Assembly (NCBI GenBank): GCA_965200965.1 | Contig: OZ241744.1 | Location: 352,001 to 416,000, forward strand | From: an uncultured Candidatus Binatia bacterium | GTDB taxonomy: Bacteria > Desulfobacterota > Binatia > Bin18 | Length of the DNA stretch: 64,000 nt | Direction of reading: 5' to 3' | Shown: one piece after another, positions 30,462 to 37,943 of the stretch | Position numbering within the stretch: the stretch's first letter is position 1 | Layout of the letters: each line of letters begins with the position of its first letter | The notes under the pieces: model-generated | What the model was told of the DNA's origin: nothing | Database searches by the model: none | What the model saw: the letters and a program-made list of their open reading frames with translations, nothing else | Translations under genes and position numbers: made by a program

Positions 30462-32240
30462 ATGAATTTCAACACTGCCAACATGACGTTTCGTCAGCTT
30501 ATGGGAAATGGGCTGAGCTATCGCGTTCCGAAGTTTCAACGCGACTATTCCTGGGGCCCCGACGAGTGGGACGATTTATGGCAGGATATTGTCGGGCTGT
30601 CCGGTGAGGACCCAGAGCCGGTGCATTACATGGGCTATCTGGTGTTGCAATCCGCGGACAGCAAGCTGTTCGATATTATTGACGGACAGCAGCGTATGAC
30701 GACGCTTAGCCTGTTGATGTTGGCCGCGATAGCGCATCTGACAGACTTGGCGGTGCCGGACGATCCGGCTGACCCGCAAAATCGACGGGCTGAGCAGTTA
30801 CGGAGCACCTACATCGGCTATCTGGACCCGGTGAGCTTGGTCCCGCGCTCCAAGCTGTCGCTGAATCGCCACAACGATCGTCTCTATCAGGACTACCTCG
30901 TCCCCCTCGATCGGTTGCCACAGCGGGGGTTGAACGCCTCGGAACATCTCTTGCGCCGGGCATTTGCTTGGCTCAAGGAGCACATCAAAGACCAATCGGG
31001 TAAGGATGGGCAATCGGTGGCCCGCTTTGTCGATGTGACAGCAGACAAACTGTTTTTTACCGTCATCACAGTCGCGGACGAGTTAAACGCCTTTAAGGTT
31101 TTTGAGACGCTGAACGCGCGTGGGGTGCGCCTGTCCGCGACCGATTTGTTGAAGAACTATCTGTTCTCTGTTGTCTCGCGTGGCGGTGCGCATGAAGCGG
31201 AGATCAAAACGCTGGAAGAGCGCTGGGAGGGGATCGTCGGACTGCTAGGCAGCGAGAGTTTTCCCGAGTTTTTGCGTGTCTTCTGGAACAGTCACAACCG
31301 GCTAGTGCGGAAGGCGGATTTGTTCAAAACTATTCGTGGCGCGATCACGGACAAGGCCGGGGCGTTTGAATTGATTCGCGCTATGGATCGGCACGCGCGG
31401 GTGTACACGGCTTTGCGTAGCCCAGAGGACGGCTCTTGGACACACAAGGAGCGCGCTAACCTTGCCTTGTTGCAGATGTTCAATGTGCGTCAGCCCTTGG
31501 CCTTACTGTTGTCAGCCTTTGATCGGTTTGCGGAAGCCGAGCGGGCCGAGTTTGCCCGTCTCCTGCGGGCCATCGCTGTCGTGTCGTTTCGCTACAATGT
31601 GATCTGTGGTCGCAAGAGCAATGAACAGGAGGCGGTATATAACCATATTGCTCGGGAAATTTCGGCGGGCCGTCTTGGCAATGCAACAGCCGCGATTGAG
31701 GGACTGCGAGACGTGTATCCAGGGGACGAGGAATTCAAGGCAGCGTTCGCGGATAAGGCGCTGCGGACCACCAGCAGCCGGAATAATAAGGTCGTGCGCT
31801 TTATCCTGTTCCAGCTCGAAAAGAAGTTATCTGGAAAGGCGTTTGATTTCGAGAGCGCGAAATACGGCATTGAGCATGTGTTACCGAAGAATCCCGGCGA
31901 GGACTGGGAACAGTTCGATGAACAACAGCGGGAGGCGTTTACCTACCGTCTGGGGAACCTCACGCCTCTGGCAACTGCGGAGAATCGTGAGTTGGGCAAT
32001 AGGGGATTCTCCGAAAAGCGCCTCGTTTACCAGACGAGTGAATTCGCCCTTACTCAGAAACTTGCCGCAGACTTTGATGCCTGGACCGTGGAGAAAATTC
32101 GCTCTCATCAGGAGTGGATGGCGAAACAGGCGACCGGCCTATGGAGAATCCATCTCCCTCTGAGGAGAAGGACGCTTATGCGTGACCAACACACGCATCA
32201 CTCAGGACATCCGCGTGCTGAGCACAACCATCGTGGCTAG
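30462..32240 (+). CDS. GmrSD-like type IV restriction endonuclease (DUF262 + DUF1524)
   Basis: Motifs PKFQRDYSW, IIDGQQR, FETLNARG..L...DLLKN, IEHVLP, LGNL...N..LGN; lower GC than the flanks. Confidence 0.88.
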   Translation: MNFNTANMTFRQLMGNGLSYRVPKFQRDYSWGPDEWDDLWQDIVGLSGEDPEPVHYMGYLVLQSADSKLFDIIDGQQRMTTLSLLMLAAIAHLTDLAVPDDPADPQNRRAEQLRSTYIGYLDPVSLVPRSKLSLNRHNDRLYQDYLVPLDRLPQRGLNASEHLLRRAFAWLKEHIKDQSGKDGQSVARFVDVTADKLFFTVITVADELNAFKVFETLNARGVRLSATDLLKNYLFSVVSRGGAHEAEIKTLEERWEGIVGLLGSESFPEFLRVFWNSHNRLVRKADLFKTIRGAITDKAGAFELIRAMDRHARVYTALRSPEDGSWTHKERANLALLQMFNVRQPLALLLSAFDRFAEAERAEFARLLRAIAVVSFRYNVICGRKSNEQEAVYNHIAREISAGRLGNATAAIEGLRDVYPGDEEFKAAFADKALRTTSSRNNKVVRFILFQLEKKLSGKAFDFESAKYGIEHVLPKNPGEDWEQFDEQQREAFTYRLGNLTPLATAENRELGNRGFSEKRLVYQTSEFALTQKLAADFDAWTVEKIRSHQEWMAKQATGLWRIHLPLRRRTLMRDQHTHHSGHPRAEHNHRG

Positions 32241-32283
32241 GACCGCACGGCGCTGTCAGGCGGGTAGGAAGCGAAGCCGCTGT

Positions 32284-32706
32284 TCACGGTTCCTGGGGCG
32301 TTTCCTCACACAATTCCACAAGCCAATCGCCTAAAGTATCCCGGTCAACCAACTGACACTGTGTCGAGTGAGCCACTCCCTTGCCCCTTTTGTACAAGAA
32401 TTATTGGTCACGACCATTGCGGCGTTGCAGCCATAGTGTTCCTTTCCTGCCACGGCATCACTCACCGCTCGGCGTGAGACTCGATTGCTGTAGCGCTTCA
32501 CCTGCACCGCGTATTTCTTGTCCCCCCTCTCGGCGACGACATCCACCCCCATATCTCCCGCCTTCCCGCAGATTCTTTTTGGCTATCTCGATCTTTTCAG
32601 TAAGTTCTTTTTCCCGCCGGCGTCTTTCCTGCTGTGCGCGGAGTTGTTCTAATTCACGGCGTTCTTCTAACTTGACCTGGAAGATAAAGCCGAAAATCGC
32701 TTCCAT
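32284..32706 (-). pseudogene. Mrr-family restriction endonuclease remnant
   Basis: GDMGVDVVA...AVQVKRY...V...AV...AG...Y...AMVVTN, then a frameshift to LVDRDTL..WL. The coiled-coil N-terminal piece is in another frame. Confidence 0.75.
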
Positions 32707-33849: not shown

Positions 33850-34317
33850 TCAGGGGACGCGCTGATCGAGCTGGATCACGATCCCGTCGGGGTCTTTGAA
33901 CAGGGTGGTCAGGACCTTACGGCCCGGGGCTTCGCCGTAGGCCACGCTGTCAAAGACCTTGGGGGCCAGGACGATGGGCACGCCGGCGGCCTTGACCTTC
34001 TCAAAGGTCTCTTCGAGGTCGTCCACCCAGAAGGCGAAGTGATGGATGCCGACCTGGGTCAGGTTGATCGCCTGACCCGAGGTCGGGCGGTTCTGGGACA
34101 GGACGATAAAGGTGGCGTCCGGGCCGTCTTCCCAGCGCAGATACACCCCGTGGCGGCCGTGCTGCTCCGCGCCGGTGACGGTCTGGATCATGCCGCCGGG
34201 GTTTTCGTTGGGGTCGTCGAGGCTGACGTGCAGGCCGAGCAGGTCGCGGTAGAACTTCAGCGACTTGGCCATATTGCTGACGCCAATAGCGATGTGCGAC
34301 GTGGCTCTGATTTTCAT
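33850..34317 (-). CDS. VOC/glyoxalase family protein
   Basis: Motifs HIAIGVSN...SLKFYRDLLG, HHFAFWVDD, DPDG..IQL. Confidence 0.88.
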   Translation of the reverse strand: MKIRATSHIAIGVSNMAKSLKFYRDLLGLHVSLDDPNENPGGMIQTVTGAEQHGRHGVYLRWEDGPDATFIVLSQNRPTSGQAINLTQVGIHHFAFWVDDLEETFEKVKAAGVPIVLAPKVFDSVAYGEAPGRKVLTTLFKDPDGIVIQLDQRVP

Positions 34318-34404
34318 GCCTCCCTCCTTTGCATAGGCGCTTGTGCCTGGCAGCTATGACACGCTTTATGGCCGGCGTCCAGACACCGGCCGCTCAGCCG
34401 GCGC

Positions 34405-34515
34405 AGGCTCGCGCGCGGCGGATCAGGCGGCTTTTGAGTTCGGCGAGGCGCGTCTCGAGCCTCAGCGGATAGGGCTGTGGATCGCTGAGCCGTTTGACCG
34501 CCGGGGGGAGACGGC
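34405..34515. repeat. 111-bp direct repeat, copy 1 (orphan pncB 3' end, with its own in-frame stop at 34394-34396)
   Basis: Identical to 36512-36622 by direct comparison (AGGCTCGCGCGCGG...GGGGAGACGGC). Confidence 0.95.
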
Positions 34516-34589
34516 ATACATTGCCGATCCTAATAAGCATCTGTCCCTGACATCCTGATCGAGCCACAGGGGGGTGGAAACTAGGTCAA

Positions 34590-35783
34590 ATGCTGGATAC
34601 CCTGTTTGTCAGAACCTTCAAGTCCCTGGAGAACGTGACGGTTGACTTGGGACGAGTCAACGTCTTCATTGGTGCCAACGGCAGCGGAAAGAGTAATCTT
34701 CTGGAGGCTTTGGGAGTTCTCTCCGCGGCGGCTGATGGCAGAGTTGATGACCAGACTTTGCTGGCCCGTGGTGTCCGTCCTGGCCTTCCCCTATTCTACA
34801 AATCTGCCTTTCCCGCCAAATCCAGGAAGAGAATCCATCCGCATCTGTATTTCGCAGCACACGGCGCGCAAGCCAGATATGAAGTCTCGCTGCATAACCC
34901 CTTGAAGCTGAGGGAACCCGCCCCCTGGAGATTTAAGACAGAGCGGTGGGAAGATGACAATGGGACAAAGCTCGTTGGACGTGGCCCCCGAGGCCCAAAG
35001 ACGAATACCGAACGGGGACTCGCTGCGCTGAAGGCGGGAGACCTTACCGCTGGTGCCGCCTTGGATCTGTTGACGTTGCTGCAAGGCTACGTCATCTTTT
35101 CGCCAACAACGCCTATATTGCGTGGGGTTGTCCCGGAAACGCAGCCGAGACATCCGGTTGGCGTGTCTGGAGGAAACCTGCCCCGCGCGATCCTGGGATT
35201 GCTGATGCAACGCCACCGCGATAAGCACAGCGAGCGGATCTGTCAGGACACATTAGAACTTGTGGATTGGGCTGCAAGTTTTAGTGCAAGCGCCGCCAGC
35301 CGACTTCCACTCTCTCCGACTGCGGCAGCGTCGAGAGTCGTGCTTCGCTTTCGTGATCGGTTTATGAGAGAGGATCGAAACGTCCTCTCCGGTTATGACG
35401 TTTCCGAAGGTGCTTTGTACGCCCTGTTTCTGGCGGTGATTGCAGGCCACAAGGGCAGTCCCAGGCTCTGTGCGGTTGACAACGCGGACCACGGCCTGAA
35501 CCCCCGCTTGGCCCGGGCGTTGATTGAACGCCTGTGTCAGTGGTATCTCACGGCGGAGGAGGCACGTCAGCTCTTGCTGACGACGCACAACCCGTTGATC
35601 TTGGACGGGCTGCCATTACAGGATGGGCGGGTACGATTGTTTACCGTGTCCCGGACCAGTACAGGCCGCACTGCTGTCCGGCGTGTGGTCGTTGATGACG
35701 CTTTGTTGGAAAGGGCGGAGCAGGGTTGGACCCTATCGCGTTTGTGGGTGATGGGACATCTGGGAGGTGTGCCGGATGTCTGA
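34590..35783 (+). CDS. ABC-type (AAA_21-like) ATPase, putative defence component
   Basis: FKSL, Walker A GANGSGKS, signature VSEG, Walker B CAVDN, D-loop GLNP, H-loop TTHNP. Confidence 0.85.
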   Translation: MLDTLFVRTFKSLENVTVDLGRVNVFIGANGSGKSNLLEALGVLSAAADGRVDDQTLLARGVRPGLPLFYKSAFPAKSRKRIHPHLYFAAHGAQARYEVSLHNPLKLREPAPWRFKTERWEDDNGTKLVGRGPRGPKTNTERGLAALKAGDLTAGAALDLLTLLQGYVIFSPTTPILRGVVPETQPRHPVGVSGGNLPRAILGLLMQRHRDKHSERICQDTLELVDWAASFSASAASRLPLSPTAAASRVVLRFRDRFMREDRNVLSGYDVSEGALYALFLAVIAGHKGSPRLCAVDNADHGLNPRLARALIERLCQWYLTAEEARQLLLTTHNPLILDGLPLQDGRVRLFTVSRTSTGRTAVRRVVVDDALLERAEQGWTLSRLWVMGHLGGVPDV

Positions 35784-36513
35784 TCCGCTGCGTGTCGCTG
35801 TTGCCGTCGAAGGACCCACCGATGCCATTGTGCTCCAAGCGATCCTGAGTGCTGTCCTGCCGAATGTCGACTTCGAGTTCCAGACGCTACAGCCGGAAGG
35901 CTCCCTTGCCTTTGATACGTCACCATCCAGCCGAACCGGTGTTGGATGGGCTGGAGTGTATCGTTGGTGTCGCCAATCGGCCTCCGAGGGTGGCGGTTCC
36001 GTGTCCGGCTCTTCGGCACTGTTGTACCATGATGTGTTGATTGTGCAGGTGGATGCGGATGTGGCGAGTAAAACATACCCCGGTGGCGGTATTCGGAATG
36101 CACCGCGCAAGGATCTGCCCTGTGACCAACCTTGTCCACCGCCTAGCAGAACCACAGACGCCCTGCGGACGGTTGTTCTTCGCTGGTTAGGAGAGTCCAA
36201 CACTCCACCACAAATTGTTTTGAGCACGCCGTCGAAGAATATCGAAGCGTGGGTGATTGCGGCGGTCTGGCCGGAGAATGCTCTGGTTCATCGAGACGAT
36301 TGGGAATGTCGGCTCAATCCGCAAGACCAACTGAAACGGCTGCCCAAGGGAAGGCGGTTCGAGAAACGTCAGGACGACTATAAACGCAAGCAAAAGGAAA
36401 TGCAGGACGGGTGGCCGGATGTGTCAGCAAGGCTGACGGAGGCTGGACGATTTGAAGCAGAATTTATAGCGGCCATAAAAAAATCTGAGGAGATGCCCGG
36501 TCAAGTGGTGTAG
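35776..36513 (+). CDS. TOPRIM-like partner protein (DUF4276/RloB-like), putative effector
   Basis: Motifs AVEGPTD, VQVDAD, P...IEAW; overlaps the ATPase stop; GGAGG RBS. Confidence 0.6.
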   Translation: MSDPLRVAVAVEGPTDAIVLQAILSAVLPNVDFEFQTLQPEGSLAFDTSPSSRTGVGWAGVYRWCRQSASEGGGSVSGSSALLYHDVLIVQVDADVASKTYPGGGIRNAPRKDLPCDQPCPPPSRTTDALRTVVLRWLGESNTPPQIVLSTPSKNIEAWVIAAVWPENALVHRDDWECRLNPQDQLKRLPKGRRFEKRQDDYKRKQKEMQDGWPDVSARLTEAGRFEAEFIAAIKKSEEMPGQVV

Positions 36514-37943
36514 GCTCGCGCGCGGCGGATCAGGCGGCTTTTGAGTTCGGCGAGGCGCGTCTCGAGCCTCAGCGGATAGGGCTGTGGATCGCTGAGCCGT
36601 TTGACCGCCGGGGGGAGACGGCTGAGTTGATCTTGTGCCCGCTGGCGAATCTGGGCCGGCCCTGGGCTGGTGTACACGGCTTTGCCCTGACGCACGACGG
36701 GCAGCAAGAGATCGCTGACCGTCATCCGGCCCGAGAAGGCAGGCTGGGCCGGGTTGGCAATCCCCAGCCGGGTGTCATACACGGTGTCGCCGACAAACGC
36801 GCCGTCGGTCTGATAGCGTCGCGCCTGAAGAATGCCCGGGGTAGTGGTTTTGTCGTCTTCTTCCGACAGCTTGACTTTGTACTGCCAGGGCTGGCCCGGG
36901 CGGCGCACCGCACCCAGCTTATAGACCCCACCCAGGGCCGGTTGGGGGTCGGCTGTCACCAGCTTCGTGCCAATCCCCCACACATTGAGCGGGCTGCCCT
37001 CGGCTTTGAGGCGGGCAATGGCGTGTTCGTCGAGGTCGTTGCTGCCAACAATGAACGCCTCGGGAAACCCGGCCTCGTCCAAGATGGCGCGCGCCTCAAG
37101 CCCGAGCTGAACAAAATCGCCCGAATCCAGGCGAATGCCGGCCAACTCGTGGCCGTGGTCGCGCAGCCAGTGGCCGACCCGAACCGCGTTTCGTACCCCC
37201 GCCCGGCTGTTATAGGTGTCAACCAGAAAGATGCAGTTATTGGGCATGGCACACGCATAGGCTTGAAAGGCTTCGCGTTCGGTGTCAAAGGCCATGACCC
37301 AGCTATGGGCGTGGGTGCCTCTGACCGGAATCCCCAACAGTTTTCCGGCCAACACGTTTGAGGTGGCGGCGCAGCCGCCGATGTACGCGGCCCGACTTGC
37401 TGCTAGCGCACCGTCGATACCCTGGGCCCGGCGGAGACCAAACTCGAGCACCGGCTCTCCATTGGCGGCCACACATATCCGGGCCGCTTTGGTGGCGATG
37501 AGGGTTTGAAAATTGATGAGATTGAGCAACGCGGTTTCGATCAGTTGGCCTTGGAGAAGCGGGCCTTGAACGCGAAGCAGTGGCTGGTTGGGAAAAACGA
37601 CCGTGCCTTCGGGGACAGCATCGACCGAACACGATAAGCGCAGCGCGTGCAGGTAGGTGAGAAACTCGTTGGGAAACAGGGCGTTGCCGTCGTTGCCGGT
37701 CAGTCCGGCCAAGTAGGCGCGGTCCTCGGCAGTAAACTGAAAGTGGGTGAGGAAGTCGAGCGCATAGGCCAGACCACCGGCCAAGCTGAATGCGCCCCCA
37801 AATGGGTTGTGGCGAAAGGACAGGTGAAACACCGCCTGGGCATCAGCCAGGCCCGACCGCCAATAGCCGTAAGCCATAGTGAGTTGGTACAGGTCGGTCA
37901 GCAGAGCCAGGGAGGGGCGGTAGAGTTCGGACGGGATGTTCAT
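36501..37943 (-). CDS. pncB: Nicotinate phosphoribosyltransferase
   Basis: Motifs LLTDLYQLTM, EFGLRRAQG, GTHAHSW, LVDTY, GIRLDSGD, LGGVYKL. Confidence 0.95.
   Translation of the reverse strand: MNIPSELYRPSLALLTDLYQLTMAYGYWRSGLADAQAVFHLSFRHNPFGGAFSLAGGLAYALDFLTHFQFTAEDRAYLAGLTGNDGNALFPNEFLTYLHALRLSCSVDAVPEGTVVFPNQPLLRVQGPLLQGQLIETALLNLINFQTLIATKAARICVAANGEPVLEFGLRRAQGIDGALAASRAAYIGGCAATSNVLAGKLLGIPVRGTHAHSWVMAFDTEREAFQAYACAMPNNCIFLVDTYNSRAGVRNAVRVGHWLRDHGHELAGIRLDSGDFVQLGLEARAILDEAGFPEAFIVGSNDLDEHAIARLKAEGSPLNVWGIGTKLVTADPQPALGGVYKLGAVRRPGQPWQYKVKLSEEDDKTTTPGILQARRYQTDGAFVGDTVYDTRLGIANPAQPAFSGRMTVSDLLLPVVRQGKAVYTSPGPAQIRQRAQDQLSRLPPAVKRLSDPQPYPLRLETRLAELKSRLIRRARAYTT
36512..36622. repeat. 111-bp direct repeat, copy 2 (within pncB)
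   Basis: Identical to 34405-34515. Confidence 0.95.

Follow-up and report, generated by a model that had tools for sequence, protein, structure and literature searches.

A candidate defence cassette between two copies of the pncB 3' end in a Candidatus Binatia genome

How can a two-gene cassette come to lie between two identical copies of a gene end when no recombinase accompanies it? The question is raised by a 64-kb stretch of DNA (the window) from G000, a 3.62-Mb single-contig genome of an uncultured Candidatus Binatia bacterium that occurs in sponge metagenomes. The gene is pncB, encoding nicotinate phosphoribosyltransferase, and the cassette encodes an ABC-type ATPase and a TOPRIM-like predicted nuclease that match the candidate defence system PDC-M31. 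The cassette probably, though by no means certainly, entered the pncB end without an integrase, by host recombination, the two copies were later equalised or rebuilt, and the cassette would now be a stable resident. The locus appears to be a variant of a described but unexplained mode of insertion; it is old, and no switch has been shown at it. Taken alone it is ordinary, and its value lies in the clues that it offers to the mechanism of insertion with long, variable target duplications, which has been open since 2000.

The duplicated pncB end and its age

The pncB gene (36501..37943, minus strand, frame open from 37982) is intact and gives an NCBIfam match above the cut-off. Its 3' end is present twice as an exact direct repeat of 111 bp, with a proximal, coding copy at 36512..36622, a distal copy at 34405..34515, a period of 2107 bp and 1996 bp between the copies. 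This match, claimed in the original prediction, was reproduced. The pair is the sole exact repeat of at least 25 nt in the whole window; in the G000 genome the repeat occurs exactly twice, and no further copy of the repeat or of the cassette was found elsewhere. The intervening DNA has a GC content of 0.57, compared with 0.615 for the genome. No recombinase is encoded between the copies, as had been predicted, and no other mobile-element genes were found in the insert or among nine neighbouring proteins scanned. Beyond the distal copy, the displaced last codons and stop of the ancestral pncB (34394..34404, minus strand) are contiguous with intergenic DNA and with the glyoxalase-family gene (33850..34317, minus strand) that directly follows pncB at the empty site, as in congeners.

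The distal copy reads ...RRARACAG* with its stop at 34394, and the expressed pncB ends in ...RRARAYTT*, both as first described. The mismatch that follows the exact repeat lies at 34404, where the proximal copy, the sister species (G007), four of four outgroups and the strain of metagenomic run X5 all have T. The duplication therefore covers at least 113 bp with one mismatch, reaching 34403 in the distal copy, and the ancestral pncB end was ...YAG* or ...HAG*, not CAG. Judged from this alignment, the dead distal copy acquired the C of 'ACAG' by mutation. Since the duplication extends this far, the entire TAG stop of the effector gene lies in duplicated host DNA, and not only its last two bases as had been proposed.

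The expressed end had also been ascribed to cassette DNA. The 23 nt past the proximal copy (36489..36511) are similar to the ancestral pncB end and keep the present stop of the gene (36501-36503) in the same register; for this junction window, picked after looking at the data, the best agreement was 13/23 (p ~0.016), and the mean over six relatives gave p ~0.004. The new C-terminus of pncB may thus not be plain cassette DNA, and the tail of the effector gene may be either the start of the donor's next gene or a diverged pncB end, two readings that are inseparable. The distal-side junction, formed by the cassette leader, has no similarity to the pncB continuation.

An empty site, with pncB directly before the glyoxalase gene, was found in five of seven congeners (G001, G002, G003, G005 and G006); of the remaining two, one gave no pncB match and G007 holds a remnant. 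No conspecific empty site was found in contigs. The order in G007 is glyoxalase gene, distal pncB copy, ATPase codons 11-187 (93% at the nucleotide level) and then the 5' part of pncB, with two deletions. The synonymous divergence of this ATPase piece (pS 0.129, 17.5 of 136 sites) is comparable to that of six neighbours (0.106-0.213), and strains about 2% diverged from G000 also carry the cassette. These comparisons indicate that the tie of the cassette to the pncB site is likely old, predating the split of G000 and G007. The integration at the pncB end had been presented as recent, which these data do not support; the integrase-free insertion, the displaced ancestral end and recombination acting on the repeats were all upheld, and the entry of a circle by a single crossover may also have taken place. 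G007 itself seems to be without this NAD salvage gene, most of pncB having gone in the deletion that removed the cassette (L054:4910-5740, with the same stretch in L163).

At three positions of the repeat (34453, 34454 and 34472), both G000 copies have derived letters, and G007 and four of four outgroups have the old letter; recombination has therefore homogenised or rebuilt the pair since the two species separated. Two of the three derived letters are synonymous in the pncB frame, and the G007 copy has five non-synonymous changes against one synonymous change. Probably the coding copy either passed its changes on to the dead copy or was the source from which the pair was rebuilt, two courses that are inseparable as G007 has lost the junctions. 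The PvuII-type restriction-modification (RM) cassette common to G000 and G007, with species-specific letters in both 47-bp copies at two positions, agrees with such post-split equalising. The age of an insertion cannot be read from the perfection of its flanking repeat.

The metagenome evidence consisted of contigs and contig depths from eight of 16 listed runs. The locus was recovered in X11, X12 and X14 as a collapsed 111-nt repeat node plus a cassette contig whose 2056 nt reach into both copies, in X5 as a 2055-nt cassette contig, in X6 as two pieces and in X1 as the left junction only. Both junctions recur in contigs of three studies (P2, P5 and P6), and the strains concerned have substitutions of their own. 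None of the contigs in these runs spans both copies, and no contig can span the whole unit; the repeat structure is real and not an assembly artefact. X7 and X8 yielded a few cassette pieces that are near-identical and have about 3x depth, with the flanks uncovered; these were considered as evidence of a second host and rejected as too thin.

Depths over the left flank, repeat, cassette and right flank were 44.7, 80.8, 43.8 and 40.3 in X11 and 59.8, 125.4, 64 and 73.2 in X14, with the repeat node at about twice the flank depth in both. The cassette depth was near that of the flanks in X1, X5 and X6, and the sole exception among the informative runs was X12 (58.2, 50.9, 38.9 and 76.5). In five of the six informative runs the depths thus agree with a single fixed copy, contig depth being a crude measure that low-rate excision would escape. 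No contig joining across an empty site was found in the eight runs, rare variants being invisible to contigs. A common switch was not seen, contrary to the switchable module originally envisaged, and the cassette is probably a stable resident. In X5, whose flanks are about 1.8% diverged, the cassette carries 59 substitutions and one frameshift, and both the distal copy and the ATPase gene are decaying.

The predicted PDC-M31 system

The two cassette genes are adjacent and overlapping, and both gave full-length PADLOC profile matches: PDC-M31A (34590..35783, plus strand, 397 aa; E 5.7e-140, residues 1-397 on profile positions 1-395 of 395) and PDC-M31B (35776..36513, plus strand, 245 aa; E 9.8e-68, residues 1-234 on positions 1-230 of 233). 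By homology, the cassette is likely a candidate anti-phage system, as predicted; no match to a restriction (R) or modification (M) gene was found in the insert. The accessible text of Payne et al. (bioRxiv 10.1101/2024.01.29.577857) describes PDC systems as untested candidates, and reports no defence by HEC-01, which has the same ABC ATPase-TOPRIM architecture, in the assays of that paper. According to the same text, the nearest tested relatives are HEC-01, OLD, Gabija and PARIS, which likewise combine an ABC ATPase with a protein having TOPRIM-like acidic motifs; cassette matches to AriA, HEC-01A and MAD3 were weak or partial. A literature search, with preprint supplementary tables outside its reach, found no paper naming PDC-M31.

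The ATPase assignment made from the sequence alone was confirmed (AAA_21). Walker A, signature, Walker B and H-loop are all present and conserved in the 74 full-length sequences retained from 81, the seven shorter ones having been dropped. Walker B (35469-35504) is D-N-x-D in 74/74, with N replacing the usual catalytic glutamate, and PDC-M31A may accordingly bind ATP with little hydrolysis or use a later aspartate. A 9-nt unit in the same gene (35222-35240) has undergone in-frame expansion by one copy in X5 and by two in X6.

The TOPRIM half of the assignment was retained on motif and predicted fold, there being no Pfam match for PDC-M31B. E12 and D93 are invariant and G13, D16 and D95 occur in at least 90% of 59 aligned sequences, a pattern of the TOPRIM acidic motifs, with E following strand 1 and DxD following a later strand; five homologues with stops or frame problems were kept out of the alignment. 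The model built from this alignment had a pLDDT of 90.6, and the single-sequence fold only 39.8. Its top-ranked structural match was PH0156 (Z 7.9, rmsd 3.9, 167 aligned), followed by the C-terminal region of Burkholderia pseudomallei OLD (Z 7.2; 4.4, 165) and by Thermus scotoductus OLD (Z 7.0; 4.3, 140), all below Z 8, the comfort line of the structure comparison tool. Foldseek gave no match with this model at E 0.001, and a PDC-M31B profile search against the sequences of solved structures returned nothing useful. PDC-M31B is thus likely TOPRIM-like.

Close relatives of the ATPase are found in genomes of Binatia, Gamma- and Alphaproteobacteria, Spirochaetia, Latescibacterota and Nitrospirales. 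PDC-M31B, in turn, was found in only two of 55 genomes of its own family (G000 and one other, at a different gene) and, with this query, in none of the seven congeners; the cassette therefore moves horizontally. A metagenome scan with PDC-M31B revealed no donor, only relatives at 41-53%.

The cassette leader (34516..34589, plus strand) resembles, from about 34536, the leader of the homologous L058 cassette. A promoter-like site (34494..34522, plus strand) spans the distal junction, with a sigma-70-like -35 box at 34494 in the distal copy, a -10 box at 34522 in the cassette and a 17-nt spacer, as a consensus match only. An own promoter-like site at -57 to -81 is present in 11 of 24 homologues, and the G000 cassette has no other candidate. 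Hybrid junction promoters were considered as a general rule and discarded, since this is the one case in 62 junctions against a background of 0.35-0.9% per site; the candidate is a lead only, within the background rate.

Two genes from pncB, at 30462-32552 and with no flanking repeat, lie a HEC-06/GmrSD-like gene (PADLOC E 3e-225) and an Mrr fragment. This is a variable defence spot, in which the GmrSD gene is shared with G006 and other DNA is found in G002, G005 and G007.

Similar repeat pairs and a described mode of insertion

The G000 genome contains 43 isolated two-copy direct repeat pairs and four inverted ones (30-500 bp, at least 93% alike, 0.3-20 kb apart), with a median insert GC of 0.573 compared with 0.619, and with repeat lengths from 30 to 406 bp at unrelated genes. 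When genes were called with a rough purpose-made caller, 24 of the 43 direct pairs touched a core gene end, 13 being expected (p 0.0005). Twenty cassette-like regions were picked by eye, and from their 212 listed open reading frames 111 were scanned with Pfam and 33 with PADLOC. Defence-type genes were found inside the repeats in 13 regions, the other seven being without a clear defence-type match. The bracketed cargo includes DarT with a macrodomain, PvuII with a methylase, AAA_21 pairs, GmrSD, AIPR, TIR, NYN and methylases. There was no integrase or transposase among the 111 proteins at the 20 sites.

Ten sites were compared with congeners. G007 has a single repeat copy and no cassette at the leuB, tldD, ArsC, CoA-transferase and FKBP sites, and the tldD site is empty in all seven congeners; nudC is rearranged, UbiA ambiguous (possibly a paralogue exchange) and recA uninformative. 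The PvuII, AIPR and TIR cassettes are common to G000 and G007. In G000 a distance of 0.5 Mb separates the DarT/macrodomain cassette at leuB from the AAA_21 cassette at tldD; in G007 the two are adjacent (L194:7857-10987), with 89% identity. DarT is split over two frames in G000. G005 has a 101-bp duplication of the pmbA 3' end of its own (L204:5275-7177), 96% alike within that genome and about 80% to G000.

Three G000 loci (phhB, pgsA/FKBP and nudC) have the form R1-X-R2 joined to R1-Y-R2. At phhB (L134:9004-14040; G000:C1:2250004-2255040) the G007 allele is followed in tandem by the G005 allele, each of which occurs singly in its own genome (R1-methylase-R2 in G007, R1-phhB-HSDR_N-R2 in G005). 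The inner junction is gap-free at pgsA/FKBP and has a 10-bp overlap at nudC, and at neither has the second allele been seen alone. The nudC locus (L127:1284-8660) contains nested repeats of 368, 186 and 179 bp around NYN, AAA_21-DUF3226 and other genes, in an order that differs from G007.

Among 49 PDC-M31 loci of other hosts, retained after 31 of 80 had been excluded as short or broken, direct repeats bracket five and inverted repeats one, compared with 0/98 control pairs. These repeats, of 38-174 bp, are unrelated and lie at other genes, with no fixed attachment site. One bracketed target is hrpA; those of L058 and L034 are, to judge by their motifs, probably an amidohydrolase and a RidA-like gene. 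A special tie to NAD salvage, which had been suggested from the position at pncB, was rejected: homologous cassettes sit at other genes in other hosts, dozens of such pairs occur in the genome, and the targets include leuB, tldD, an MFS gene, a CoA-transferase gene and, in another host, hrpA.

What the original prediction had missed is that this layout corresponds to a described insertion with long target duplication. As set out in the accessible text of Furuta, Abe and Kobayashi 2010 (PMC2853133), which cites Nobusato et al. 2000 for long target duplication, the class comprises R and M genes in an insert below 20 kb, with a duplication above 30 bp and no other mobile element. Most such insertions are described there in naturally competent species, and the repeats often cover start or stop sites. 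The same text ties the duplication to restriction enzymes and cites amplification of repeat-flanked RM genes as shown, release and reinsertion never having been shown.

The pncB locus resembles this class in its insert of 1996 bp, its duplication of 111 exact and at least 113 bp, the lack of a mobility gene, the empty site in relatives, the repeat over a gene end that keeps the target intact and a host with competence genes; repeat length varies in the class too. It differs in its cargo, an ABC ATPase-TOPRIM pair instead of R and M genes, and in that the empty site is seen between species and not within one. By sequence criteria, the locus has every feature of the class except the cargo, and works like the class without being a member. 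It also goes beyond the class, with copies equalised after insertion and stacked alleles in the same genome. The literature search found no paper extending long target duplication to non-RM defence systems; matches on long target duplication and phage defence concern, by title, restriction systems, and nothing on point was found on sponge symbionts or integrase-free defence cassettes. G000 offers dozens of pairs around both non-RM and RM defence genes, no integrase other than XerC/XerD and a sister genome against which changes can be polarised. The mechanism becomes testable through two clues, namely the copies equalised after the split at two sites and the stack of two congener alleles.

Proposed routes of entry

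Two matches to PF00589 were found in G000, XerD (above the cut-off) and a XerC-like protein beside hslV, both more than 1.1 Mb from the pncB locus. No match to PF00239 (resolvase), rve or Ku was found in a search that did not extend to Cas1, reverse transcriptases or most DDE families; ComEC, DprA and RecA are present. The incoming DNA would have arrived by natural transformation. It would then have been joined to the pncB side by homology or near-homology and to the other side illegitimately, which would have duplicated about 113 bp, the two joins being made on sister chromosomes or the fragment having circularised first, alternatives that are indistinguishable. The link of the cassette to the site would predate the split from G007, and gene conversion would later have made the two copies alike, unless the pair was rebuilt from the coding one. 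The asymmetry of the junctions, of which the pncB side resembles the target and the other side does not, would support such a combination of joins. The phhB tandem of alleles seen singly in congeners also points to host recombination with incoming DNA. Stacks of this form are expected from a relative's fragment with one homologous and one illegitimate end, by way of sister chromosomes or a circle. Once resident, the ATPase would sense infection and then release the TOPRIM nuclease, by analogy with proposals for other ABC ATPase-TOPRIM systems.

The accessible text of Johnston et al. 2013 (PMC3784515) describes tandem duplications that arise in transformation by interchromatid integration, one fragment being joined to two sister-chromosome positions; those merodiploid duplications are of 100-900 kb and need pre-existing IS repeats, compared with a pncB repeat of about 113 bp. 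Homology-facilitated illegitimate recombination (PMC3240628) integrates transforming DNA with one homologous and one illegitimate end and no recombinase, and the accessible text makes no mention of target duplication. The transfer of both mechanisms to pncB, and their combination, is our inference by analogy, backed by the junction asymmetry.

Several observations weigh against this scheme. Neither a donor molecule nor an intermediate was seen, and competence is deduced from three genes. Mobility genes were searched for in a limited set of families, and the genome does contain one repeat pair of IS size. The excess of pairs at gene ends was obtained with the rough gene caller, and 44 of the 49 homologous cassettes have no bracketing repeat. 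G007 has lost both junctions by deletion, so that identical boundaries are not demonstrable and the site may have received a second, separate insertion. The low cassette depth in X12 could mean empty sites, and its repeat node at 50.9 fits no simple model.

The original proposal, that a recent single crossover integrated a small circle (the cassette plus one pncB end) which is excised or amplified often enough to act as a switch, would account for copies identical over 111 bp, for recombination acting on the repeats, for the stacks at other loci, which a circle would leave, for the X12 depth and for the amplification cited in PMC2853133. It appears unlikely nonetheless, since the G007 remnant has a neighbour-like divergence, a circle from a diverged donor would leave unlike copies, the cassette is near flank depth in X11, X14, X1, X5 and X6 with no empty-site joint in eight runs, and the distal copy and ATPase are decaying in X5. 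Somewhat less credit is given to a tandem duplication with differential loss, in which a cassette once a few genes off was duplicated in a segment from the pncB end to the cassette, and deletions left the 113-bp overlap. The variable defence spot two genes away, the changed cassette order and 10-bp overlap at nudC, and the tldD AAA_21 cassette, which lies beside the same downstream DNA in G007, G006 and G003 and on the other side of pmbA in G000, are consistent with such a course. It is countered by the occurrence of PDC-M31B in 0/7 congeners (with this query) and in one of 54 other family genomes, at another gene, by the lack of any cassette trace elsewhere in G000, and by G007, where the cassette is already at the distal pncB copy.

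An initiating break made by the TOPRIM nuclease of the cassette itself, in line with proposals for restriction enzymes, is improbable, even if the accessible text of PMC2853133 suggests double-strand breakage as common to RM types, PDC-M31B resembles OLD nuclease domains and members of this cassette family lie between repeats at five other sites. The activity of PDC-M31 is putative, and several bracketed G000 cargos are without a recognised nuclease (seven of the 20 regions have no clear defence-type match), for which reason a cargo-independent process is simpler. The duplication of a gene 3' end is the usual footprint of integrative elements, and prophages, integrative and conjugative elements and integrative mobilizable elements restore the 3' end of their target gene, so that an origin from an integrase-bearing island, of which this would be the remnant, or from a non-autonomous element mobilised in trans by a site-specific recombinase was also considered. 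As in those elements, pncB is restored proximally and its original end displaced distally, and G007 shows large deletions at the locus. The probability of this origin is equally small, because no integrase was found in the insert, in the G007 remnant or among the 111 proteins at 20 other sites, only XerC/XerD occur in the genome, repeats of 30-406 bp lie at unrelated genes with no fixed target, and the unit between the repeats is, end to end, the two-gene cassette of other hosts. An assembly artefact, finally, is largely refuted and has a negligible probability: no contig spans both copies and X11 may be the source sample, but the junctions recur in three studies and in strains that carry distinct substitutions, the depth of the repeat node is about double in X11 and X14, and the G007 remnant has the same order.

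Beyond integrase-free entry by host recombination, a wider scheme can be offered as a speculation of rather low probability. The sponge symbiont would run a recombinase-free cassette system, in which competence and RecA stack the defence alleles of neighbours at core gene ends, the duplicated ends act as self-renewing attachment sites kept identical by recombination, and the dead pncB copy is kept for its -35 box.

Two other types of repeat were observed in G000. In one place (G000:C1:3437161-3452652), 13 kb lie between two identical 1234-bp copies that contain a 393-aa frame, an arrangement like that of a composite transposon, and large arrays of paralogous repeats of about 2.5 kb, in many copies, occupy G000:C1:271800-303000 and 1144500-1162000.

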